Below are positions 1,913 to 15,794 of a stretch of DNA of 21,597 bases, piece after piece (positions within the stretch are counted from its first letter, which is position 1; each line of letters opens with the position of its first letter). This DNA comes from Candidatus Bathyarchaeota archaeon RBG_16_48_13 (GTDB lineage Archaea > Thermoproteota > Bathyarchaeia > RBG-16-48-13), in assembly GCA_001775995.1 (NCBI GenBank), contig MEZH01000004.1, forward strand, positions 1-21,597. The letters are read 5' to 3'. Position numbers and translations under genes: made by a program. The notes under the pieces are model-generated. The model did not search any database and was not told where the DNA came from. It saw nothing but the letters and a program-made list of their open reading frames with translations.

Positions 1913-2719
1913 CTAGTAAAGGACCGTGTACGGCAGCAGGACTATGTTCAAGATCAGCAGTATGATCAGGGACACGATGGCAATGTAATCAACGGTTTGG
2001 AATTTTATCTCCTTCACGAACGTCCTCTTGACAGGGGCGCCGAACGCCCTCGACTCGATGGCCACGTCCAGCTCGTCTGACCTCTTCAGCATCGCCAGCG
2101 TCAGCGGCGTCACCAGAGGAACGTATGCCCTGATCTTCTTGAAGAAGTTCATGTGCTCGAAATCGTAGGCCCTGAGCTTCTGGGCGTTGAGGATTTCACC
2201 CCAGGTCCTCGACATGAGGGGCGCGAACCTGAGAGCCGTTGAGAGGGTGAAGTTGAAGCTGTATGGGACTTTCAGCTTCGCCAAGGCCACGATGAAGGTC
2301 GAGAGAGGGGTCGTCATGGTCAGGATTGGGATGCTGAAGACGATGCACAGTATCCTGAGAGAAAGGGTGACCCCGAACAGGAAGCCCTCCAGGGTGTACG
2401 CCCCTATGTTCTTGCCACCTACGTTGAAGGTGAAGAGGGTGAAGAGCACCGTCTTGCCCCTCCAGTAAAAGAACCCCTGCACCAAAAGGAAGATCACTAT
2501 AGTTGTTGCCAGCAGCGCGAAAATGACTTTAAGCCTCGAAATCGGGATCCTAGCGACACCCCACCACGCCAAGATCACAACGAGCAGGATCGTCAACAGT
2601 ATGAGGTTCGGGAAAACTGACGCCAAGATGAAGCACATAGCCAAGAAGAACAGCTTCGTCACAGGGTTCATCCTGTGGACGGCCGTCTTTCCAGGCACGT
2701 ATTCAAGTATTGAAGCCAT
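1913..2719 (-). CDS. ecfT: ECF transporter transmembrane component T (copy 1)
   Basis: HRMNPVTK N-terminus, hydrophobic helices, ALRFAP, and the two X-R-X coupling motifs (KLRAY, ESRAFG). Confidence 0.92.
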   Translation of the reverse strand: MASILEYVPGKTAVHRMNPVTKLFFLAMCFILASVFPNLILLTILLVVILAWWGVARIPISRLKVIFALLATTIVIFLLVQGFFYWRGKTVLFTLFTFNVGGKNIGAYTLEGFLFGVTLSLRILCIVFSIPILTMTTPLSTFIVALAKLKVPYSFNFTLSTALRFAPLMSRTWGEILNAQKLRAYDFEHMNFFKKIRAYVPLVTPLTLAMLKRSDELDVAIESRAFGAPVKRTFVKEIKFQTVDYIAIVSLIILLILNIVLLPYTVLY

Positions 2720-2722
2720 TTT

Positions 2723-4438
2723 CTAGGCACCTCCATATGATGATAACAGGCCTTCTACCGACAATACGTTCGGCACCCCATGGTCCTTCATGGTTTGGGC
2801 GAGTTGCGTTATCTGGGGAGGCTTCAGGTAAGTCTTCTCCAGGATCCCGGTCTGGCTGAACACCTCTTCTGTCGGCCCGTCAAGGAGGATCTCTCCAAGC
2901 CCCATTACAACGGTGCGCTTCGCGTATTTCGCGACGAGGTCCATGTCATGGGTAATCATAATCACAGTGTGGCCTTTGTCATTCAGGTTCTTTGCGAGAT
3001 CGGTTATCTCGTATCGCCCCTTGTAATCCTGGGCGGTCGTGGGTTCGTCCAGAATTATGATCTTGGGCTCCATGGCTAGGACAGCAGCCACCGTCAGCTT
3101 TCTTCTGTCGGCGAAACTGAGTCTTAGCGGGTAGACGTTCTTGGAGTTCTCCAGCCCGACGGACTTGAGCGCCGAATCAACTCTCTTGTCTATCTCCTCC
3201 TTGGACAGCAGGAGGTTCTTGGGCCCGAACTCCACTTCTTCCTTCACCGAGAGGGCGAAGAGCTGATGGTCAGGGTTCTGGAGGATCAGACCCACCCTCT
3301 TGGCTATCTCTCCCGTCGTGAATTTCTTCGAGTCATCTCCATAAACCAGGACCTGCCCGGTGGTGGGCTTCAAGAGGCCGACAAAATGCTTCACAAGGGT
3401 TGTCTTCCCCGCGCCGTTCTGCCCGATTATCCCGACGAATTCTCCGTCGTATATTCTGACGTTTATATCCTTTAGGGCGAGCACGTTGCCTGGATAGGTG
3501 TGTGAAAGGTTCCTTGTCTCCAGGATCGGCGATCTGCCTTCCTCAGAGACCGCGGTGGCGCCAGCCGCCGGTTGAGTGCTGTGCGCTCTCCTCTTGTGGG
3601 GTTTAGGAATATCCGCCACAGCTTCCTGCAAAGTGATCGGCAACTTGTCGATCTTGAAGCCCTTCTTCCTCAGCTCAAAGCCCAACCTGGTCACGGGCGG
3701 AACCTTCACCTCGATCTTGTCTAGGAGATCGATCTTGCTGAAGACTTCGTGCGGATCGCCGCTTGCTATCATCTCGCCATCATTCAACAGGATTATCCTG
3801 TCGGCAATCTCTGCAACCTCTTCGCTCTTGTGCTCAGCCATCACGATGGTGACGCCATATTTCTTGTTAAGGTCCCTGACGACCGACAAGACCTCCGTTG
3901 AGCCGATCGGATCCATCTGAGAGGTGGGCTCATCAAGTACCAGAACGTCTGGGCGCATTGCGAGGACTGCGGCAAGAGCCAGACGCTGCTTCTGGCCGCC
4001 CGACATCTCGTTCGGGCTTCGGTCCAGCATCCCTTCCAACCTGACAGCCTTCAGAACGTAACTTGTCCTTTCGATGATTTCCTCTCGCGGTATTCCAAGG
4101 TTCTCCGGCCCGAATGCAACCTCCGTTTCGACGTCGGGGCATAGTATCTGGGTCTCTGGGTCCTGCAGCGCCATCCCGACCTTCTGGGCCAACTCATAGA
4201 CTGGATGTTCATCAGTTTTGAGGCCGCAGACGGTCACGATGCCGCTCTTCTCTCCCTCAACGACGTTAGGCACGATGCCATTCATGGTCATGCAAAGGGT
4301 GCTCTTCCCGGCTCCATTTGGACCCATTATGACTATGAACTCGCCCCTCTCGACATCGAAATTGATGTTCTTCAGGGCCTTAGCGCCGTTCGGGTAGGAG
4401 AACGAAAGATCCTTAACGGAGATTATGGTGTCGGTCAC
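2723..4438 (-). CDS. ECF transporter fused double ATPase (A-A'), copy 1
   Basis: Two nucleotide-binding domains: GPNGAGKS / MSGGQKQR / LVLDEPT and GQNGAGKT / LSFADRRK / IILDEPT. Q-loops LQDPETQ and LQNPDHQ are of the EcfA/CbiO type. Confidence 0.95.
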   Translation of the reverse strand: MTDTIISVKDLSFSYPNGAKALKNINFDVERGEFIVIMGPNGAGKSTLCMTMNGIVPNVVEGEKSGIVTVCGLKTDEHPVYELAQKVGMALQDPETQILCPDVETEVAFGPENLGIPREEIIERTSYVLKAVRLEGMLDRSPNEMSGGQKQRLALAAVLAMRPDVLVLDEPTSQMDPIGSTEVLSVVRDLNKKYGVTIVMAEHKSEEVAEIADRIILLNDGEMIASGDPHEVFSKIDLLDKIEVKVPPVTRLGFELRKKGFKIDKLPITLQEAVADIPKPHKRRAHSTQPAAGATAVSEEGRSPILETRNLSHTYPGNVLALKDINVRIYDGEFVGIIGQNGAGKTTLVKHFVGLLKPTTGQVLVYGDDSKKFTTGEIAKRVGLILQNPDHQLFALSVKEEVEFGPKNLLLSKEEIDKRVDSALKSVGLENSKNVYPLRLSFADRRKLTVAAVLAMEPKIIILDEPTTAQDYKGRYEITDLAKNLNDKGHTVIMITHDMDLVAKYAKRTVVMGLGEILLDGPTEEVFSQTGILEKTYLKPPQITQLAQTMKDHGVPNVLSVEGLLSSYGGA

Positions 4439-4455
4439 GTTGATTGCAACCCCGA

Positions 4456-4467
4456 TGAACGTAAAAT
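4456..4467 (-). promoter_or_regulatory. Conserved 12-bp element ATTTTACGTTCA upstream of ATPase 1
   Basis: 11/12 identical to ATTTGACGTTCA at 11736-11747. The two lie 18 and 19 nt from their ATPase start codons. Confidence 0.5.
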
Positions 4468-4490
4468 TAACTTATGACAGATTGGCTCAT

Positions 4491-4504
4491 AAAAAAAGAA
4501 AAAA
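4491..4504 (-). terminator. Oligo-T terminator T6-C-T7 after S component 1
   Basis: Plus strand AAAAAAAGAAAAAA, about 25 nt past the stop at 4530. An identical 14-mer follows S component 2. Confidence 0.7.
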
Positions 4505-4529
4505 TGTTGGTGCTCATCCTCTTTCAAGG

Positions 4530-5303
4530 TCACCAAACAGCTCTCGGGATCTTCTTCAGCCCACTCTTCTTTAGCCCTCTCAATATCGCCGTGCCGATAA
4601 TAGCCGCGACGGTGTAGAATATCGATGCCTGCCACCAGACCGCAAATATACCTATCCAGATGTTCAGAGACGGCGGAAAGACGTACCAGATGTCGTACCA
4701 GACCCAGCCAAGAAGATGTCCTATTTCCCGCGCAATCCAGGTTGTGAACCAGACCGCGATGAAGATCTTCACAGGGCTGTCGCTCCTCAACCATAGGTTG
4801 AGATGCTTGTACCCCAGGACGACCGTCCATAGAAGCCCTCCGAAAGCCACCCATACTATAGCCTGCCACATGTTGGGATCGAACGCCGGAAAGCCTCCCG
4901 CTGGTCCTGGCCATGCATACGGGATGAACATGAACATCACTGAGAACACTATCCACAGCGGAACCAGGTAGTACCATTTCCTGTTGGCCACAAGCCCTGC
5001 AGCTAGGGGAGGCAGTATCCAGCCATCAAGTATACCCAGAGCTCCAGTAGAGAAGGCTGCCGGGTTGATGAAAAGGCCTATGATTCCCCCGATCAGACCT
5101 GCGACGGCTCCTGCGAACGGGCCCAGCACCAGACCGGTCAGTGGAAGCAGAGCTGTAGCGAGCGGGAAGACCGCTCCTCCTTCCATGTAGTAGATCAGCG
5201 GGATGATTCCCGTTGCCCCCAAGATTGCACCGAAGATCGCAATCCACGAGAGAGGAGCGCCAAAAAGTGCGGCTCTCTGAGCACTAGTCTTGGTCTCTGC
5301 CAT
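4530..5303 (-). CDS. Putative ECF substrate-binding (S) component 1, unusually long (257 aa)
   Basis: Highly hydrophobic. AxxxA-like motif in TM1 (AIFGA) and an LGPxxGAxAxxIGG segment. Lies directly upstream of the ECF ATPase and T genes. Paralog at 11837-12595. Confidence 0.75.
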   Translation of the reverse strand: MAETKTSAQRAALFGAPLSWIAIFGAILGATGIIPLIYYMEGGAVFPLATALLPLTGLVLGPFAGAVAGLIGGIIGLFINPAAFSTGALGILDGWILPPLAAGLVANRKWYYLVPLWIVFSVMFMFIPYAWPGPAGGFPAFDPNMWQAIVWVAFGGLLWTVVLGYKHLNLWLRSDSPVKIFIAVWFTTWIAREIGHLLGWVWYDIWYVFPPSLNIWIGIFAVWWQASIFYTVAAIIGTAILRGLKKSGLKKIPRAVW

Positions 5304-5684: not shown

Positions 5685-6698
5685 ATGGGCAGGATAAAGA
5701 TCGACGCGATAATAGCGCCAGAGTGCGATCTTAAGACCCTTGCAAGGCTTTCCAAGATGGCGGAGAAGTACAACTTCAACACCATATGGATGGGTGATGG
5801 CGCCTATCAGAGAGACTACGCGTCTTGCCTCACGATCATGGCTCAAGCCACCAAGAGGATAGGCGTGGGTTTGGCCGTGACCAACCCATATCTACGACAC
5901 CCCATCAAGAGCGCCTTGGCGATTGCCAGCGTAAACGAGATCTCCGGGGGGAGGGCTCTCATGGGGATCGGGGCGGGGAGCCTCGACACACTGAAGTCGC
6001 TCGGACACAATTGGAACATGCCGGTAGAGCGGATCTCCGACATGATAACGGCTGTCAGATCCTTCTTAAGCGGAAGATCGGTGGAACTGAAGACAGATAC
6101 AATAAGCATCGAGGGTGTGAAGGCCTGGATGCCGTTGATTAGCCCCATCCCGATCTATGTCGGTTGCAGGCGGCCCTTGATGATGAGGATGGCGGGAAGG
6201 TTTGCCGACGGTGTCCTCCTCGACAACGTCCCAATTGAATACCTGCCATTCGCTCTGGATCAACTCAAAACTGGGTCAGAGTTGTCTAGAAGGGATTTCA
6301 CCAAATTCGACGTTGGAAACCTCAGCATATTCGCGGTCTCCGAAGACAAGAAGGAGGCTATGAAAAGGGTCAAGAGGCACCTTCCATACGACTTTATCAC
6401 AATCTCCAAGAGGGAGCTCAAAGCCGTGGGCCTCACGCCGAGGGATATCGAACCAATGCTCGCCGCCCTACGGCGGCAGCTGCCGGAGGACTTCATGAAG
6501 GCTTCAGAATTCGTCACCGATTACATGGTCAAGAACTTCTCCACCAGCGGAACCCCTGAGGAGTGCATCAGGAGGATAAAGGATTATTCGAGAGCTGGAG
6601 TCACCAGGATCCTGCTCGGATTGCCCACAGAGCCAAGCGATAAGCCTGAGGAAACGCTGAAACTCGCGGGAGAATCAATCCTGCCTGAGCTAAATTGA
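5685..6698 (+). CDS. Luciferase-like (LLM) oxidoreductase, Mer-like, probably F420-dependent
   Basis: AEKYNFNTIW, AVTNPYLRHP, EISGGRALMGIGAG, PIPIYVG, AGRFADGVL and SGTPEEC are LLM/Mer motifs. F420 use is inferred from family and host type. Confidence 0.85.
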   Translation: MGRIKIDAIIAPECDLKTLARLSKMAEKYNFNTIWMGDGAYQRDYASCLTIMAQATKRIGVGLAVTNPYLRHPIKSALAIASVNEISGGRALMGIGAGSLDTLKSLGHNWNMPVERISDMITAVRSFLSGRSVELKTDTISIEGVKAWMPLISPIPIYVGCRRPLMMRMAGRFADGVLLDNVPIEYLPFALDQLKTGSELSRRDFTKFDVGNLSIFAVSEDKKEAMKRVKRHLPYDFITISKRELKAVGLTPRDIEPMLAALRRQLPEDFMKASEFVTDYMVKNFSTSGTPEECIRRIKDYSRAGVTRILLGLPTEPSDKPEETLKLAGESILPELN

Positions 6699-6746: not shown

Positions 6747-7739
6747 CTAAGGATTTCTCAGGATCTTCCTCATCTCTGAAAGCGAAATGTTCCCTTTTTC
6801 ATGGTACTTGATGTCCTTCTCTGTCCGCCCCTTCACCAATCTTATCGTCTTACCAACGATGTCCTTGACACTCTTGACGCCCTGCTCCTCCAGGATCTGG
6901 CTCATCTCGTCCCTTATCTCGCGGATCTTTTCAAAGCCGCCGGTGATGACAGAGCTCTGCAACCCTACCGCCGTCGCGCCGGCCATCATTAGCTCAAGCG
7001 CGTCCTCGCCGCTGTAGACTCCGCCTGAGCCGATCAGAGGCATATCCACCGCCTTTGCAAGCTTGTATACGCAGTACACGGACAGCGGATGCACGGGTCT
7101 CCCGCAGAGGTGCCCAGTCCCATCAGGACTTCCTATGATCGGCATGCCGGTCGAGACGTCTATCTTCATCGCCCAAGGACCATCGACAACCAATGCTGCA
7201 TCGGCTCCGGCCTTTCTCATCAGGCCTCCAACTCGTTCTATGTCGTACGCGTAGTTCAAATTGACGCAGACTGGAAGGTCGGACGTCTTCTTCACGGACG
7301 CAATGATCGCCCGCGCCTCGTCCAAGCTCATGTCCACGTAATTCGTTACAACGTGAAGCATGGCTGCACCTGCATCTGCAACCTTACCCGCCAGCTCGGT
7401 GTACTCTGCAATGGCTGACTTGGCCTTAAGGACAAAAATGCTGCCGATGATCGGAATGCCCGCCTTCTTCGCTTTAGGGAACTCCCGCTCAATCCAGTCA
7501 TCGACGCTCGATGCCGAAGCCGTGGTCGCATTAAGTATGCCCCCTCCCAAAGACGAAAGGCACGGCATCGGATCCTTGCCCCCCTTCTTCTCAATAGATC
7601 TGTTGATGACCGCTCCAGCCCCGTACTTGGCCGCCTGCAAAATGGACTCGCCATCCTGAGTCATCGGTCCGGGGGTGAGAATCAATGGATTTCGGAGTTT
7701 CAGCCCGCAAAACTCTACGGAAAGATCAACGCCCTTCAA
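6747..7739 (-). CDS. Divergent dihydroorotate/dihydropyrimidine dehydrogenase (PyrD class 1/PreA)-family protein
   Basis: LSVEFCGLKLRNPLIL, AGAVI, ILNA, PIIGSI, AGADA, IDVSTGMP, LIGSGGV and ELMMAGATAV match the family scaffold. The catalytic motifs are replaced. Confidence 0.85.
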   Translation of the reverse strand: MKGVDLSVEFCGLKLRNPLILTPGPMTQDGESILQAAKYGAGAVINRSIEKKGGKDPMPCLSSLGGGILNATTASASSVDDWIEREFPKAKKAGIPIIGSIFVLKAKSAIAEYTELAGKVADAGAAMLHVVTNYVDMSLDEARAIIASVKKTSDLPVCVNLNYAYDIERVGGLMRKAGADAALVVDGPWAMKIDVSTGMPIIGSPDGTGHLCGRPVHPLSVYCVYKLAKAVDMPLIGSGGVYSGEDALELMMAGATAVGLQSSVITGGFEKIREIRDEMSQILEEQGVKSVKDIVGKTIRLVKGRTEKDIKYHEKGNISLSEMRKILRNP

Positions 7740-7797
7740 GATTTTCCCTCAAGTCAGACAATGCTTCCTTTGATTTATAACAATTTCAAGCGGCATC

Positions 7798-9100: not shown

Positions 9101-9985
9101 CTAGGTTGGCAAGAAAGTCGGCGGCTTCGCCCATGAAGGAACCCACCACATCCAGTCTGAGGGGACGAAGTACCCCTGCCAATATATCTGGCCGTAGATC
9201 ACTAGAGCGGCGAACAGTGCCATCACTATAAGGAATATGTAGTCTACGTGAGTGAAACGAAACTCCTCGACAAAGGTCCTCTTGACTGGGGCACCGAAAG
9301 CTCTGCTCTCTATGGCGATTTCCAAGTCGTCAGATCTTCTGAGAAGGGACATGAAAAGCGGTGTCACAACAGGCACGAAGGCCTTGCGGACCTTGTCTAG
9401 ATAGCTCATCTTGTCTATGTCATGAGCCCTGAGTACCTGAGCGTCCTTTATGTCGTAATAAGTCGTGAAAATTAGGGGAGAGAATCGTACGGCTGTTGAG
9501 AAGGCGAAGTTGAATTTGTACGGGAACTTCAGCTTCTGCAAGGACACGGCTATTTGCGGGACCGACGTGGTCAGTGTCAGCAAAGGCACGCAGGAGAATA
9601 TACACACGATCCTTATGACCATCGCCAAACCGTAGGTCAAACCCTGGAAGTATATGCGCCCGAAGGGCTTGTCGACGGGCCAAAAGGGTATGTTGAATTC
9701 AAAGACCGAAATGTAGGGCCCTCCAAACATCCACAGAAGTGTCTGGGCAGCGACCCATATCGCCCCCGACGCGAGCATGATCACAAAGAGGAACTTGAAC
9801 CTGCTGAGCAATCGAGGTATTCCAGCCAAAGCCCATAATACCATGATGCTTACCAAGACTATGGCCAGGGAAAAGATGTCTCTCAGCCCAAGGGTCACGA
9901 AAATGATGTAAAGGGAGAAAAATACTTTCGTAATGGGGTTCAGCCTATGGATCGGCGAGTTACCCGCTACATATTCTATGGCCAT
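9101..9985 (-). CDS. ecfT: ECF transporter T component (copy 2)
   Basis: HRLNPITK, AVRFSP, VLRAH and ESRAFGAPVKRTFV. The last block is identical to copy 1. Confidence 0.92.
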   Translation of the reverse strand: MAIEYVAGNSPIHRLNPITKVFFSLYIIFVTLGLRDIFSLAIVLVSIMVLWALAGIPRLLSRFKFLFVIMLASGAIWVAAQTLLWMFGGPYISVFEFNIPFWPVDKPFGRIYFQGLTYGLAMVIRIVCIFSCVPLLTLTTSVPQIAVSLQKLKFPYKFNFAFSTAVRFSPLIFTTYYDIKDAQVLRAHDIDKMSYLDKVRKAFVPVVTPLFMSLLRRSDDLEIAIESRAFGAPVKRTFVEEFRFTHVDYIFLIVMALFAALVIYGQIYWQGYFVPSDWMWWVPSWAKPPTFLPT

Positions 9986-9992
9986 TTCTCTC

Positions 9993-11717
9993 TCACTTCC
10001 TGAAACTCAACGATTCTTTAAACTCATCTACAGTAATAATATCTTTGTGGACACCTTGCTTCTCAAGGGCTTGCGCAAGCTGACCTATCTGCGGCGGCTT
10101 CAGGTATGTCGTTTGGAGGACATCCGGCTTCTCAAAGACCTCGTGCGTCGGTCCGTCCAATATAACCTCACCGTTGCCTAGAACGATCGTCCGGTGGGAA
10201 TACCTCGTCACCAATTCCATGTCGTGAGTGATCATCACGACGGCATTTCCGCGTTCATTCAAGTTCTTGGCTATCTCAACTATGTCGTACCGCCCCTGGA
10301 AATCTTGCCCTGTGGTCGGTTCATCTAGTATGAATACGCTAGGCTTCATCGCGTATATCGCAGCCACCGCCAGTTTCCGTCTGTCTCCAAAACTGAGTCT
10401 GAACGGATAGGCCTTTCTCATTTTCTCCAAGCCAACCAGCTTGAGGGCTTCATCAACTCTTTTGTCGACCTCTTCTTTGCTAAGTCCGAGGTTTGTGGGG
10501 CCGAAGGCCACCTCCTCTTCCGCGGACTGCGCAAACAGCTGATGATCAGGGTTCTGAAGCACCAGCCCGATGTTTCTCGAAAGCTGGGCAGCAGTCTTTT
10601 TCTTTGTATCTTCACCTAGGACCACGACGTTGCCCTTTGTGGGCTTAAGCAGCCCCACGAAGTGCTTGACCAACGTGGTCTTTCCGGCGCCGTTCTGGCC
10701 TATGAGGGCGACGAACTCACCTTCATATATCTTGAGACTGATGTTCTTTAGCGCCACAAAGTCCGGCGGATATGTGTGCCACATCTCGCGTGTCTCGAGG
10801 ACCACTTTGTCCGAATGTGAGGACTCAGCCCTGTTGATCATGTACCCCTTCTTCTCATGGATCTTCTTCTCCTCGAAGAGCTTCGACAGCGCGGATATGC
10901 CCTCTTCAAGGGTTACCGGGAACTCTTTGGCCTTCTCGTGTTTGTTGATCCAGTGGAACAATTGGCTTACTTGAGGTAGCTTCACTTTCGACTCATTAAA
11001 CAGTTGCTCATTCTGGAATACCTCATGAGGGTTTCCGTCAGCCACGACTTTCCCTTCGTGAAGGAGTATAACCCTGTCAGCGAAATCAGCGATCTCCTCG
11101 CTCTTGTGTTCGGTCATTATGACGGTAATCCCGAATTTCTTATTGAGATCCTTCGTAACGGAGAAGACTTCGGTTGTCCCTATTGGGTCGAGCTGTGAGG
11201 TGGGTTCATCCAAGATTAATATCTTCGTCTGCATGGCTATTGCGCATGCCAAGGCGAGCCTCTGTTTCTGGCCCCCCGACAGCTGCAGGGGAGATGCCGC
11301 CTCCTTCCCGTCGAGCCTCGTGACCTTCAGGGCATAGGCGAGACGCTTGAGGATCTCCTCTCTGGGGATACCTAGATTCTCTGGACCAAAAATGACTTCA
11401 GATTTCACGCTGGGCGCAAGGAGCTGGGATTCCGGATCCTGTAAAGTGATTCCAACTTTCTGCGCCAAGTTGAAGATGGGCGTCTTCGTTGTCTGCAGCC
11501 CATCGATGATGATTTTGCCTTCATACGTCCCATTGATGAGGGATGGAATAACGCCGTTAAGGGTCAGGCATAGAGTTGTCTTGCCGGCGCCGTTCGCGCC
11601 CATGACTACGACGAATTCGCCCTCGTTTATCGCGATGTTGACGTTATCGAGAGCCTTCCTCTCCCCCGACGGATAGGTAAATGAAAGATTTTCTATTGTA
11701 ACTATGGGCTCAGCCAT
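9993..11717 (-). CDS. ECF transporter fused double ATPase, copy 2
   Basis: GANGAGKT / LSGGQKQR / LILDEPT and GQNGAGKT / LSFGDRRK / FILDEPT. Confidence 0.95.
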   Translation of the reverse strand: MAEPIVTIENLSFTYPSGERKALDNVNIAINEGEFVVVMGANGAGKTTLCLTLNGVIPSLINGTYEGKIIIDGLQTTKTPIFNLAQKVGITLQDPESQLLAPSVKSEVIFGPENLGIPREEILKRLAYALKVTRLDGKEAASPLQLSGGQKQRLALACAIAMQTKILILDEPTSQLDPIGTTEVFSVTKDLNKKFGITVIMTEHKSEEIADFADRVILLHEGKVVADGNPHEVFQNEQLFNESKVKLPQVSQLFHWINKHEKAKEFPVTLEEGISALSKLFEEKKIHEKKGYMINRAESSHSDKVVLETREMWHTYPPDFVALKNISLKIYEGEFVALIGQNGAGKTTLVKHFVGLLKPTKGNVVVLGEDTKKKTAAQLSRNIGLVLQNPDHQLFAQSAEEEVAFGPTNLGLSKEEVDKRVDEALKLVGLEKMRKAYPFRLSFGDRRKLAVAAIYAMKPSVFILDEPTTGQDFQGRYDIVEIAKNLNERGNAVVMITHDMELVTRYSHRTIVLGNGEVILDGPTHEVFEKPDVLQTTYLKPPQIGQLAQALEKQGVHKDIITVDEFKESLSFRK

Positions 11718-11735
11718 TTTACAATCAGACCTGCT

Positions 11736-11747
11736 TGAACGTCAAAT
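11736..11747 (-). promoter_or_regulatory. Conserved 12-bp element ATTTGACGTTCA upstream of ATPase 2
   Basis: Positional and sequence match to 4456-4467. Confidence 0.5.
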
Positions 11748-11805
11748 ACTCAATCTGAGTTCTAATTAGGCTTTGCGGTAACGGCAGAGCCGAGAGTTAT
11801 GATTC

Positions 11806-11819
11806 AAAAAAAGAAAAAA
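11806..11819 (-). terminator. Oligo-T terminator T6-C-T7 after S component 2
   Basis: Plus strand AAAAAAAGAAAAAA, identical to 4491-4504, about 17 nt past the stop at 11837. Confidence 0.7.
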
Positions 11820-11836
11820 GGGGTTAAATAGTGTTC

Positions 11837-12595
11837 TTACCAGACAGCTCCGGGTATTCTTCTGAGCCCGCTCTTCCTAAGCGACAGCAGCAACGGCACT
11901 CCTATTATGCCTGAGATCACCTGCAACATCACCCTCTCAAAGGGCACCGCGACACCAGATAGCACCGCGACGACGTAGGCCGGAATCGGGAAGTAGAATA
12001 GCAGCCACGTTGTCCAGCCCCACAGGTGCAATGATTGAGCGGCTATCCAGTGCAATAACATCAGGCCGAAGAACATCCTTGTCTTGTTGTCGCCCTTGAC
12101 CCAATCCGCCACTTTGCCTCTGCCAACGGTGATCAGCAGTGGGAACGATAGGCCATCGTACCAAACTGAAGCGGCCAAGAAGGGTTGTGGCAATGCACCC
12201 ATTGCAGGATATGTTGGCCAATACCACGGGGTAAGCTCGTAGAATACGATCCCAAATAGCGGTACCCACCATATCCATTTCCATTTCTTGTTCAGGATCA
12301 TGCCTGCCATGAATGCCGGTCCGATGAAGTTAGTGATCAACCCGTCGATGGTAGAGCCAGGGGCCAAGAACATACTGATCGCTCCCCCGATTGTGGCTGC
12401 AGCTGTTGCTCCCCAAGGTCCCAATAGAGCGGCCACTATGGCTATTACTGCGTAGCTCAGTGAGTGATATCCGCCACCCTCAACATAGTAGATCAGAGGT
12501 ATGATTGAACCTGCGCCTAGGAGAGCCCCCATCAATGCCACCCAAGATACTGGAGCTCCACCTATTGTAGCACTAGTTGTTTTTTCTTCACCCAT
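11837..12595 (-). CDS. Putative ECF S component 2 (about 252 aa)
   Basis: Paralog of 4530-5303, sharing GAPxSW, IIPLIYYxEGG, LGP, NxKW, HLxGW and KSGLxxIPxAVW. The likely start is ATG at 12595 after GAGGGTGA; the ORF track starts it at 12610. Confidence 0.75.
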   Translation of the reverse strand: MGEEKTTSATIGGAPVSWVALMGALLGAGSIIPLIYYVEGGGYHSLSYAVIAIVAALLGPWGATAAATIGGAISMFLAPGSTIDGLITNFIGPAFMAGMILNKKWKWIWWVPLFGIVFYELTPWYWPTYPAMGALPQPFLAASVWYDGLSFPLLITVGRGKVADWVKGDNKTRMFFGLMLLHWIAAQSLHLWGWTTWLLFYFPIPAYVVAVLSGVAVPFERVMLQVISGIIGVPLLLSLRKSGLRRIPGAVW

Positions 12596-12606
12596 TTTTT
12601 TCACCC

Positions 12607-12873
12607 TCACTCCTTTGGTTTCATCATGACGCCTGCGACGTACATCACCGCGCCAACGACTAGCGGGATAACACCCATCCAGCCATTAGCGTAAGCCATG
12701 CCCCAATGGTACTGCCAAGTCGCCGGATTCCACGGCGCACCGCCACTCCACACGTCCAGCGGCACATAAACATAGCTGCTGAACAGGACCATGGCACCCA
12801 CCGCAATCAGAAGAATACCGATCCACCGAACAATATCGTTCATCTTCCAACCAGATTTCTTAGCTTCTGCCAA
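12607..12873 (-). CDS. Small 2-TM membrane protein 2 (about 88 aa)
   Basis: Homolog of 5303-5521 (WIG, AVGA, SS, MG, VVG). The likely start is TTG at 12873 (MAEAKK, compare MAEETK) after GGAGG; the ORF track starts it at 12891. Confidence 0.8.
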   Translation of the reverse strand: MAEAKKSGWKMNDIVRWIGILLIAVGAMVLFSSYVYVPLDVWSGGAPWNPATWQYHWGMAYANGWMGVIPLVVGAVMYVAGVMMKPKE

Positions 12874-13922: not shown

Positions 13923-15794
13923 ATGTTAGGTGGCTACGCGGGAAAGATACTTCACGTTGATTTGAGTAAGAGGATGTTCAAGAAGGAGATATTGGATCCT
14001 AAGTTCGCCCGTGCATTTCTTGGTGGAAGAGGCTTCGGCGCCAAGCTCTTGTTTGATCATTTGGAGCCAGGGGTCGACCCTTTCAGCCCAGATAACGTGC
14101 TGATCTTCGCCACAGGTCCCTTCACCGGAACCAACATGCCCAAAGGCCAACGGTACAGCGTCGTGACCAAATCACCCCTCACCGGCGGGTATGGCGATGG
14201 CGAGGGAGGCGGACACTTCGGACCGGAATTGAAGTTTGCGGGCTACGATGCCTTGATCGTAAAAGGAAAAGCGGACAAACCGGTCTATATCTGGATCGAT
14301 GACGAGACCGCTCGGCTGGAAGATGCAACGCATATATGGGGTAGAGGAGTATTTGAGGCGGACAAGATCATAAAGGATGATAAAGCGGACAAGCTGGTCA
14401 GAGTCGCCGCGGTAGGCCCCGCAGCCGAGAAACTTGTGAGGTTCGCAGCCGTAACAAATGACTTATACCGCCACGCCGCGAGGGGCGGGGGGGGAGCGGT
14501 CATGGGTTCAAAGAACCTGAAGGCGGTGGCAGTTCGAGGGTTCGGGGGAGTGGAGGCCGCAAACACCGATGAGTTCAACAAAGTTGCTGAAGAGGCAATG
14601 AAAAAGACTTACGACAACCCCGGAAGAAAAGGCATGTACGATTGGGGAACCTGGGGGGGTGGCGGAGGATGGGACCTGAAACAATACAACCTCTGGGGTA
14701 TACACCCAACGCGCAACTACAGATCGGGATACTTCGAGAATTACGAAAAGATCTACGGGAAGAACTTCCGCGATAGGCTACTCCTGAAACAAAGGGCATG
14801 CTTTGCTTGCCCCCTGGCATGCGGGAGGCATGCGCTCATCCGGGATGGACCGTACAAGGGCACATTCGTCGAGGGTCCCGAATATGAAACAATAACGATG
14901 TTAGGATCTGATTGCGGAGTCGACAACATAGAGGCCATCGCCAAAGCCCACCAAATGTGTGACGATCTCGGATTCGACGGAATATCAGCAGGAAACGTAG
15001 TCGCATTTGCCATGGAATGCTACGAGAAAGGCCTCATCACGAAAGAACAGACTGGTGGAATAGAGCTGAAGTGGGGAGACCCAGAGGCGCAGATGGCCCT
15101 CCTGAAGAAGATAGCTTACAGAGAGGACATAGGAGACGTACTAGCGGAAGGAGTCAAGATTGCGGCTGAAAAGATTGGCGGAAGCGCACCCGATTTCGCC
15201 ATGCACGTGAAGGGACTACCGCTGCCTGCCTACGAGCCTCGAGGCGCGTTGGGACAAGCGCTGGCATTCGCCATATCGGATTTGGGTGGGTCTCACGACA
15301 GGGCTTGGACATACGGTGAGGAGATAACCAACCCCAAGCTCGACAGGTTCTCCACTGATGCAAAGGCGGAGTTGGTCAAGAACAACATGAGGATGAGGAC
15401 TCTTCCGGACATCTTGGGCTATTGCCGCTTCGTCCTTCTCAGCTATGACGACTACGCCAAGGCGATGGCTGCATTGACGGGGTGGAATATAACAGCAGAA
15501 GAACTGATGACGGTGCCGGACAAGGTCACAACCCTGACGAGGGCCTTCAACGTAAGGGAGGGGTTCGGCAGGAAGGATGACATATTGCCTCCAAGAGCCA
15601 TGAAGGAGCCGGTGGTAGACGGGCCTACAAAGGGCAGGATGGTAACCAAGGAAGAACTGGACAAGATGTTGGATGAATATTATCTGCTGATGGGTTGGGA
15701 CAAGGACGGGATCCCCAAGAGGGAAACCCTAGAGAAGTACGGCATGACAGATGTAGCTGAGAAGCTTACAAGCCGGGGAATATTACTCTCCTAG
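13923..15794 (+). CDS. aor: Aldehyde:ferredoxin oxidoreductase (tungstopterin AOR family)
   Basis: GKILHVDLS, KSPLTG, GPELKFAGYD, GAVMGSKNLKA, 4Fe-4S ligands CFACPLAC plus GYCRF, GPEYET, and DDLGFDGIS. Confidence 0.95.
   Translation: MLGGYAGKILHVDLSKRMFKKEILDPKFARAFLGGRGFGAKLLFDHLEPGVDPFSPDNVLIFATGPFTGTNMPKGQRYSVVTKSPLTGGYGDGEGGGHFGPELKFAGYDALIVKGKADKPVYIWIDDETARLEDATHIWGRGVFEADKIIKDDKADKLVRVAAVGPAAEKLVRFAAVTNDLYRHAARGGGGAVMGSKNLKAVAVRGFGGVEAANTDEFNKVAEEAMKKTYDNPGRKGMYDWGTWGGGGGWDLKQYNLWGIHPTRNYRSGYFENYEKIYGKNFRDRLLLKQRACFACPLACGRHALIRDGPYKGTFVEGPEYETITMLGSDCGVDNIEAIAKAHQMCDDLGFDGISAGNVVAFAMECYEKGLITKEQTGGIELKWGDPEAQMALLKKIAYREDIGDVLAEGVKIAAEKIGGSAPDFAMHVKGLPLPAYEPRGALGQALAFAISDLGGSHDRAWTYGEEITNPKLDRFSTDAKAELVKNNMRMRTLPDILGYCRFVLLSYDDYAKAMAALTGWNITAEELMTVPDKVTTLTRAFNVREGFGRKDDILPPRAMKEPVVDGPTKGRMVTKEELDKMLDEYYLLMGWDKDGIPKRETLEKYGMTDVAEKLTSRGILLS

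Follow-up and report, generated by a model that had tools for sequence, protein, structure and literature searches.

A divergent paralog of the dihydroorotate dehydrogenase fold in a Bathyarchaeia genome, orphan in function

Introduction

The barrel shared by dihydroorotate dehydrogenase (DHOD) and dihydropyrimidine dehydrogenase (DPD) belongs to the intensively studied drug-target folds, and the two lysines of the active site are regarded as fixed features. A gene of Candidatus Bathyarchaeota archaeon RBG_16_48_13 raises the question of what such a barrel becomes when one of these lysines, together with most of the other catalytic residues, is replaced. The gene lies within positions 1 to 21,597 of contig MEZH01000004.1, the stretch of DNA analysed here and called the window, and encodes a protein of 330 residues, called below the window protein. 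A sequence-only reading had described it as a PyrD/PreA-fold protein with nearly every catalytic motif rewritten, and as a flavoenzyme with a new substrate or mechanism. The analysis presented here identifies the window protein as a well-documented divergent paralog which is an orphan in function. Its fold, its descent, the history of its substitutions and the selection acting on it are considered in turn, followed by the functions that may be proposed for it.

Fold and family membership

The window protein is a (beta/alpha)8 barrel of the DHOD fold. The Pfam profile PF01180 (DHO_dh) matches it with an E-value of 3.6e-28 and 99 bits, against a cut-off of 27 bits, and the match runs over profile positions 2-291 of 291. 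The AlphaFold2 (AF2) model, calculated from a 100-sequence alignment, has a mean predicted local distance difference test score (pLDDT) of 94.8 and a predicted TM-score (pTM) of 0.92. Its Foldseek comparison gives TM-scores normalised to the query (TMq) of 0.75-0.82, at 17-24% identity, to the class 1B enzyme of Lactococcus lactis (DHODB), to the class 1A DHODs and to pig DPD's domain for flavin mononucleotide (FMN). The ESM Atlas returned generic DHO_dh clusters only and held no model of the window protein itself. The C-terminal half also matches, weakly, the non-flavin phosphate-binding barrels HisA (1.9e-7), HisF and GGGPS.

Below the level of the fold, the profiles of the named enzymes are not reached. 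Among the NCBIfam models, the PyrD equivalog and subfamily profiles give 159.9 bits against a cut-off of 269 (NF005574), 157.3 against 270 (TIGR01037) and 120.6 against 330 (NF041011), and the PreA profile NF006183 gives 99.2 against 335. The Fer4 profiles of Pfam find no match in the window protein, and its last 75 residues hold no cysteine, compared with eight in the relatives; therefore, the PreA-type C-terminal ferredoxin domain is absent. Judged by residues as well as by scores, the window protein fails every comparison that would place it in PyrD or PreA.

Active-site residues

The active site was mapped by a HMMER alignment to the DHODB chain 1ep1_A, and the register was taken from family alignments of 100 and 264 sequences. 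At the first lysine, the pairwise HMMER alignment is two residues off register, and in the large alignments the lysine column is occupied by R47 and by neither I45 nor N46. The motifs were located as N46-R47-S48, H129-V-V-T-N-Y-V-D136, V159-N160-L161, V185-D186-G187, G209-H-L-C-G213, G237-S-G-G-V241 and G254-A-T-A-V258. These are the residues quoted in the sequence-only reading, which was equally correct about the uninterrupted frame, the intact GSGGV and GATAV motifs and the missing ferredoxin domain. The correspondence of each position with DHODB and with the class 1A enzyme of L. lactis (DHODA) is given in Table 1.

In class 1A DHOD, orotate is hydrogen-bonded by Lys43, Asn67 and Asn194, and the pocket is lined by Lys164 and Lys214 (PMC4427443, PMC12060061). 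The window protein has neither lysine of the usual pair, with Arg47 and Asn160 in their columns, and it has no catalytic-cysteine loop of the xLNxSCPN type. The column of the general-acid cysteine, Cys671 in pig DPD, holds Tyr134. Among the orotate-binding asparagines, Asn70 alone is kept, and the DHODA Asn132 column falls inside the shortened loop, which has no asparagine there. The predicted FMN phosphate loops are retained, with GxGG, G(A/S)xAVxxG(T/S), G209 and G213 all in place; among 100 homologs, none departs from glycine at G213, G240 or G254, and G239/G240 are glycine in 255 of the 256 sequences outside the clade described below.

Inherited and clade-specific substitutions

The census of these positions was based on an alignment of 264 sequences, made up of the eight members of the clade to which the window protein belongs and 256 other homologs. 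Position 160 shows the sharpest change: the others have lysine in 255 cases, arginine in one and asparagine in none, and all eight clade members have asparagine. At position 129, where the clade has histidine, 246 of the others have glutamate and a single one has histidine. The first lysine column (47) is lysine in 239 and arginine in seven of the others, and arginine in eight of the eight clade members. Such a change from lysine to arginine is conservative, so that listing NRS among the rewritten motifs went too far. Position 214 is arginine in the clade and proline in 163 of the 256 others, and position 217 is histidine in the clade, lysine in 186 of the others and histidine in 19.

A different picture is obtained at the remaining positions. 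Tyrosine, which the window protein has at 134, is found there in 62 of the others (cysteine in 140), and aspartate at 186 in 55 (asparagine in 184), which makes Asp186 common to part of the ferredoxin-fused family described below. Position 210 is glycine in 144 of the others, tryptophan in 66, tyrosine in 13 and arginine in 11, in all non-glycine in 112 of the 256, and histidine occurs there only in the clade and in the protein P0004. Because the ferredoxin-fused relatives already carry them, several of the motifs taken for rewritten are inherited, not new, and the description of nearly every catalytic motif as rewritten from PyrD was overstated, given that the nearest relatives are PreA-like. 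Compared across the alignment, the features specific to the clade are the missing ferredoxin domain, Asn160, His129, His210 (otherwise in P0004 alone) and Arg214. The sequence-only reading had also proposed His210 and Cys212 as a catalytic pair. Such a pair is unlikely, because position 212 is serine in the relatives of 65% identity; His210 alone is clade-wide.

The changes were acquired stepwise, as two ferredoxin-less proteins of about 303 residues, P0124 and P0035, hold Arg47, a residue other than glutamate at 129, Asp186 and His217, and yet retain the second lysine. The loss of the ferredoxin domain can be followed at the C-terminus. The clade tail is conserved in P0002 and P0273 (65% identity), at a place where P0004 and the ferredoxin-fused family have eight cysteines for two [4Fe-4S] clusters. 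The alignment gap falls between the segment ending in KYH and a conserved tail SLxEMRKIL, which is weakly homologous to the residues that follow the ferredoxin domain in P0004.

Origin within the ferredoxin-fused family

The genome (848 kb, 75% complete) contains three DHO_dh genes: a canonical pyrD, a ferredoxin-fused paralog and the copy in the window. The canonical pyrD has the motifs LNLSCPH, AKL, INT and GGLSG, is directly followed by pyrK and lies about 33 kb from the window gene on the same contig. The presence of this pair, together with a score of 160 bits against PyrD cut-offs of 269-270, bears out the earlier view that the window gene does not serve uracil biosynthesis. The paralog (C7:262793-263929) encodes 378 residues and has two [4Fe-4S] clusters at its C-terminus.

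Homologs were searched in 5.8 billion clusters and, exhaustively with HMMER, in 1.84 billion representatives, and the two rankings agreed. The clade itself (66% identity) is followed by the ferredoxin-fused P0004 (43-45%) and then by many proteins of about 360-380 residues which combine the barrel with an eight-cysteine ferredoxin domain (33-40%). Only 59 proteins reached an E-value below 1e-30. In a FastTree phylogeny of 109 homologs, the clade groups with P0124 and P0004 with a support of 98, within a group of 15 sequences (98) that includes the ferredoxin-fused paralog of the same genome; the SH-like (Shimodaira-Hasegawa-like) supports of the nested groups are 98, 92, 89 and 98. Most of the ferredoxin-fused relatives have no catalytic-cysteine loop (ELSTHYLG or ELPAY in its place). 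They have two inserted residues as well as a bulky one in GxG(W/R/Y)xSG, and aspartate is frequent in their INT motif. Read from the tree and the shared motifs, the window protein is a derived, atypical offshoot within the archaeal PreA-like ferredoxin-fused family, and not a rewritten PyrD.

The large family in which a DHOD barrel is joined to two [4Fe-4S] clusters in about 360 residues (P0005-P0023, P0121-P0199 and others) is itself mostly devoid of the cysteine loop, nearly always keeps both lysines and shows either GYGWLSG or GxGRISG. Searches of the literature brought up no paper on archaeal proteins of this Cys-less, PreA-like type. The window protein draws attention to this large, uncharacterised family of Fe-S flavoproteins, which is its ancestor group.

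The canonical pyrD of this genome, outside the window at about 40,000-41,030 of contig C4 (L001:1320-2238), is crossed by a scaffold gap of 12 N, on either side of which the frame differs. The triplet immediately ahead of the gap is TQS, compared with TKS in 13 relatives and MKS in one, and the first lysine of this pyrD is unverified there. The gap and the TQS reading are probably an assembly artefact near the contig end.

Selection and occurrence

The strength of selection was estimated from a 3-kb metagenome contig (L016), which carries an ortholog with 92% amino acid and 88% nucleotide identity. The Nei-Gojobori ratio of nonsynonymous to synonymous substitution rates (dN/dS) is 0.07 (dS 0.53), compared with 0.07 for the adjacent gene of a major facilitator superfamily (MFS) permease and 0.20 for the neighbouring S-component gene. 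The two proteins differ at 24 residues, none of them in the motifs. A third strain, read from contigs of a soil run (X3), shows 38 differences, of which 30 fall on third codon positions, with five amino acid changes and again none in the motifs; about half of these variants are absent from L016. An example of such silent variation is the change from AAT to AAC at 7260, which leaves Asn160 intact. Over a larger distance, P0002, P0003 and P0273 (65% identity) keep Arg47, His129, Val131, Thr132-Asn-Tyr134, Asn160, Asp186, His210, Arg214, His217 and the tail. The frames are intact in all eight clade sequences, and among the rewritten positions only Cys212 varies at 65% identity. The window gene is under strong purifying selection and is not decaying. 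The replacement of the second lysine, and of the glutamate that was its likely partner, under selection at the level of the neighbouring gene provides a natural experiment on the roles of these residues in flavin binding and tuning.

The clade is rare. An exact-sequence look-up found five members in the 90% cluster of the window protein, one in that of P0002 and two in that of P0003, about eight among about 15 billion sequences. Of the 60 relatives, 400 class genomes and 400 phylum genomes searched, none yielded an ortholog above 40% identity. L016 was the one clade contig among the matches listed in the metagenome scan, and the genome-contig scan had no clade member among the matches listed. 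The DNA occurs in metagenomes of sediment, soil and groundwater, and no RNA run is listed among the sequencing runs that contain it; the runs with a small share of this DNA were not used as evidence of habitat.

Relation to known systems

The class 1B PyrD (L. lactis DHODB; 1EP1-3, 5KSW, 5UE9) is the best sequence match in the PDB (1.8e-20) and the best by Foldseek, with a TMq of 0.77-0.80 at 24% identity. The two proteins share the FMN-barrel fold, the asparagine corresponding to Asn72 and the FMN-phosphate loops. Unlike DHODB, the window protein has neither the Cys135 loop nor an adjoining PyrK, and its Lys48, Glu130, Asn132, Lys170, Asn197, Gly219 and Lys226 are all replaced. The stand-alone barrel of class 1A (L. 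lactis DHODA and the trypanosomatid DHODH), which works at one site without Fe-S clusters or a partner, is the working model adopted here, with a TMq of 0.77-0.82. Its similarity in sequence is weaker than that of DHODB, as most chains match the C-terminal third only; the Trypanosoma brucei chains 9vpr, 2b4g and 5xfv align over query residues 6-297 with an E-value of about 4e-6. The equivalents of Cys130, Lys164, Asn127 and Asn193 are missing from the window protein.

The PreA/DPD enzymes (pig DPD, 1H7W/1GTE; NF006183) have a DHOD-fold FMN domain, and their layout of a barrel with two C-terminal [4Fe-4S] clusters is shared by the nearest relatives of the window protein, whereas the window protein itself has neither the Fe-S domain nor the general-acid cysteine. 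The nearest characterised relative of this layout is PydAc. In Clostridium chromiireducens, this ferredoxin-dependent enzyme shows that a barrel of the PreA layout works without an NAD(P)H module (PMC7332683). The closest proteins by sequence and tree are the archaeal PyrD/PreA-like proteins of about 360 residues with two [4Fe-4S] clusters (P0006-P0023, the Hadarchaeota locus L018 and the C7 paralog), at 33-45% identity. They share with the window protein the short Cys-less loop with T-x-Y, the two-residue insert before GxG(W/R/H)xSG and, often, the aspartate at 186. Nearly all of them have both lysines, and most have the glutamate and the eight-cysteine domain; the window clade has none of the four.

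Possible functions

The preferred reading, adopted tentatively and at somewhat less than even confidence, is that the window protein is a functional, neofunctionalised stand-alone offshoot of the PreA-like family: an FMN enzyme with a substrate other than orotate, and neither a PyrD nor a DPD. It would bind FMN or another phosphate-bearing cofactor, most likely FMN, through the GSGGV and GATAVGLQS loops and Asn70. With no Fe-S wire and no adjoining partner of the PyrK type, both half-reactions would take place at one site, by analogy with class 1A DHOD. The substrate may be anionic and/or rich in N-H or amino groups, such as a nitrogen heterocycle or an ene-acid, and could be held by Arg47, Arg214, Asn70 and Asp186; the two arginines point to an anionic group and Asp186 to a ring N-H or amino donor. 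Proton transfer would be carried out by Tyr134 or by the new histidines (129, 210, 217), and not by cysteine. If the substrate were found, the metabolism of Bathyarchaeia, of which little is known, would be extended by a reaction.

In DHOD structures, the second lysine touches N1/O2 of the flavin and the ribityl chain. The replacement of Glu129 and Lys160 by histidine and asparagine appears to be coupled; with it, the positive charge normally present at the flavin N1-C2=O would be lost and, if the flavin is kept, its chemistry would be retuned. Positions 129 and 160 lie on the adjacent strands beta-4 and beta-5 in the AF2 model (assigned by DSSP), and a contact between His129 and Asn160 is proposed.

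Several points weigh against the preferred reading. The retention of FMN rests on sequence, and asparagine stands at position 160, where 255 of the 256 homologs have lysine. The earlier claim of a flavoenzyme was too firm, as the phosphate loops speak for it and Asn160 against it. The gene context points to no substrate, and at the 16 loci viewed elsewhere, the relatives of the neighbouring energy-coupling factor (ECF) importer module have no close homologs of the window's enzymes adjoining them. The Mer-like neighbour is broken by a 790-bp deletion in the sister strain, and the window gene apparently has its own promoter.

It is rather unlikely, if worth serious consideration, that the enzyme is independent of flavin and reuses the phosphate cradle, with His129, His210, His217 and Asp186 forming an acid-base or metal site at the former isoalloxazine position. 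The loss of a near-universal lysine and of a glutamate conserved in 246 of the 256 homologs would fit such a site, as would the missing Fe-S electron wire, the three new histidines and two arginines lining the former active site, and the weak matches to HisA, HisF and GGGPS. These matches, however, merely mirror the shared phosphate-binding motif; Asn70 and the entire FMN-phosphate cradle are retained, every strong match in sequence or structure is a flavoprotein, and relatives that have both lysines often carry a bulky residue (W, R, Y) at 210. In a broader reading, which is improbable, a barrel deprived of its flavin-anchoring lysine and of its Fe-S wire would do chemistry new to the fold, either with another cofactor or a histidine/metal site, or as a lineage-specific import-and-convert reductase of a pterin-like compound or nitrogen heterocycle supplied by the ECF and MFS transporters next to it. 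The preferred reading also has a special case, in which the enzyme would reduce dihydropterin or another imported cofactor or heterocycle in an import-and-convert island with the second ECF module, the MFS permease, Mch-like and Mer-like proteins and ThyX; this case is of low probability. It draws on the order of the ECF S, AA' and T genes, the MFS gene and the PyrD-like gene, with the Mch-like, Mer-like and thyX genes within 7 kb, and on the preserved order of MFS, PyrD-like and S-component genes in L016; an aspartate in the Asn197 column would also favour a ring N-H or amino donor. The association is seen in one lineage only, however, and the 16 module loci viewed elsewhere, up to 10 kb on either side, have no close homologs of these enzymes. 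Further, the Mer-like gene of L016 is broken while the PyrD-like gene is under purifying selection, the conserved promoter-like element suggests separate transcription, and the MFS protein is similar to DHA1 efflux pumps of a generic kind.

The DHOD and DPD barrels act as dimers, and the Fe-S chain of DPD crosses between subunits. Such an arrangement lends some sense to a pairing in which the window protein would serve the ferredoxin-fused paralog on C7 as a non-catalytic or regulatory subunit, as the genome has both a ferredoxin-fused and a ferredoxin-less copy, the former in the same 15-member subgroup, and as fold and surface tail are conserved in spite of the altered catalytic positions. 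The probability of this pairing is likewise low, as the two genes lie on different contigs among unrelated neighbours, and the altered active-site residues do not vary at 65% identity, which speaks for a pocket in use. That the window protein is a genuine dihydroorotate or dihydropyrimidine dehydrogenase with atypical residues is very improbable: its fold, its top named matches (PyrD and PreA), the kept Asn70 and an Arg47 that could still bind a carboxylate are set against the missing catalytic Cys/Ser loop, the replacement of Asn132, Lys170 and Asn197, the score of 160 bits where 269 are required, the canonical pyrD-pyrK pair, and the lack of an Fe-S domain and of an adjoining PreT or PyrK partner. 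Even less credible is a decaying paralog, a pseudoenzyme on its way out. Many catalytic residues are gone and the distribution is very narrow, but dN/dS equals that of the MFS neighbour, 30 of the 38 strain variants fall on third positions, all eight clade sequences have unbroken frames, the motifs are invariant at 65% identity and the AF2 model is confident. The sequence-only reading had named relaxed dN/dS and substitutions unique to this copy as signs of decay. Neither is found here: dN/dS is low, and the substitutions, Cys212 excepted, are fixed across the clade at 65% identity, as that reading had asked to be checked.

Gene features

The TTG start of the window gene is taken as correct, because an in-frame TGA lies 12 nt upstream of it and the N-terminal strand of the family aligns with residues 3-25. 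A shorter call from Met26 (P0270) is wrong in view of the same two features. The 144-nt spacer upstream of the gene was compared with L016 (88% nucleotide identity): its proximal part of about 55 nt is nearly identical, and the distal part is diverged and carries indels. The conserved proximal spacer and the candidate promoter element in Table 1, the function of which is read from its sequence, therefore suggest that the window gene has its own promoter and is transcribed separately. The Rfam search gave no family match within the window, and a scan of the window for sigma-70 promoters and terminators stayed at chance level, with models of this kind not being applicable to archaea.

Table 1. 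Features of the window gene, with positions in the window and corresponding DHOD residues
Feature	Position	Strand	Remarks
Coding sequence of the DHOD/PreA-fold protein, 330 aa	6747..7739	-	TTG start; TAA/TAG-type stop at 6747-6749; frame uninterrupted in the open reading frame list
Candidate archaeal B recognition element (BRE)/TATA element, GAAATTG-TTATAAAT	7773..7787	-	About 35-40 nt 5' of the TTG; read from sequence
Candidate Shine-Dalgarno-like GAGGG	7746..7750	-	6 nt 5' of the TTG; GGGGG in L016; putative
DHODB Lys48 to Arg47	7599..7601 (codon)	-	First active-site lysine; DHODA Lys43
DHODB Asn72 to Asn70			Kept; DHODA Asn67 column
DHODB Glu130 to His129; HVVTNY (129-134) in place of ELNxSC	7338..7355 (codons)	-	Invariant in the clade
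DHODB Asn132 to Val131			DHODA Asn127 column
DHODB Cys135 to Tyr134			Sequence LHVVTNYVD; loop shorter by at least 7 residues
DHODB Lys170 to Asn160, AAT	7260..7262 (codon)	-	Second lysine; DHODA Lys164
DHODB Asn197 to Asp186	7182..7184 (codon)	-	Orotate-binding Asn; DHODA Asn193, TcDHODH Asn194
DHODB Gly219 to His210; Ser221 to Cys212; Lys226 to His217			
HLCGRPVH (His210-His217) in place of GLSGPAIK	7089..7112 (codons)	-	
Retained phosphate-binding end, GSGGV (237-241) and GATAVGLQS (254-262)	6954..7031	-	
Clade C-terminal tail TEKDIKYH...SLSEMRKILRNP, about residues 306-330	6750..6824	-	Cys-free

Genomic context

Upstream of the window gene and on the same strand lie the genes of an ECF importer (S component, fused AA' ATPase and T component) and of the MFS permease. 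Downstream and convergent is a Mer-like gene of the F420-type luciferase-like monooxygenase (LLM) family (5685-6698, plus strand), and a further, second ECF module, accompanied by a divergent Mch-like gene, is found within 7 kb, as is thyX. The contig L016 has the MFS, PyrD-like and S-component genes in the same order as the window. Compared with window positions 5856-6645, 790 bp are gone from the middle of its Mer-like gene (L016:1911-1918; net 784 bp), which breaks the frame, and the PyrD-like, MFS and S-component genes beside the deletion are intact. The Mer-like enzyme can thus be dispensed with in a strain that conserves the PyrD-like gene.

The MFS protein has only generic matches of the DHA1 efflux type in NCBIfam, in which the S components match nothing. 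The S component, an atypical protein of 257 residues, always occurs with a fused AA' ATPase and a T component (1913-5303 and 9101-12610 in the window; L051-L065 elsewhere). This S-AA'-T module is present in 17 of 400 other class genomes, mostly of one genus. At 16 module loci in 15 genomes, viewed up to 10 kb on either side, the PyrD-, Mch-, Mer-, MFS- and ThyX-like genes of the window have no close counterpart; the single hit is a DHO_dh-like match of 27% identity about 7 kb from the S gene at L063.

Among the gene contexts of the ferredoxin-fused relatives, no common partner emerged. In the genomes G253 and G310, their neighbours are 2-oxoacid dehydrogenase E1 alpha and beta genes. A locus of G253 (L069, G253:C31, 8095-11083) has an aldehyde:ferredoxin oxidoreductase gene, followed after 20 nt by a 364-residue ferredoxin-fused PreA-like gene; upstream, an amidohydrolase is encoded. 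The window, too, has an aldehyde:ferredoxin oxidoreductase gene (13923-15794). In a Hadarchaeota metagenome-assembled genome (L018, CAYFIY010000005.1, 4899-14772), a Cys-less PreA-like Fe-S flavoprotein of 363 residues starts 2 nt after an SsnA-like aminohydrolase. Its neighbours are a hydantoinase/dihydroorotase-like amidohydrolase, XdhC, MobA, a MoCF-domain protein and a MOT1 molybdate transporter, a layout that is reminiscent of the anaerobic catabolic clusters for nitrogen heterocycles of the purine/pyrimidine type. The ferredoxin-fused paralog of the window genome itself (C7:261654-265452; L029:7655-11453) is placed between an amidohydrolase of the histone deacetylase (HDAC) family, downstream on the same strand, and a class III aminotransferase transcribed divergently, and AcnX and CofD, the latter of F420 biosynthesis, are encoded a few kb away.

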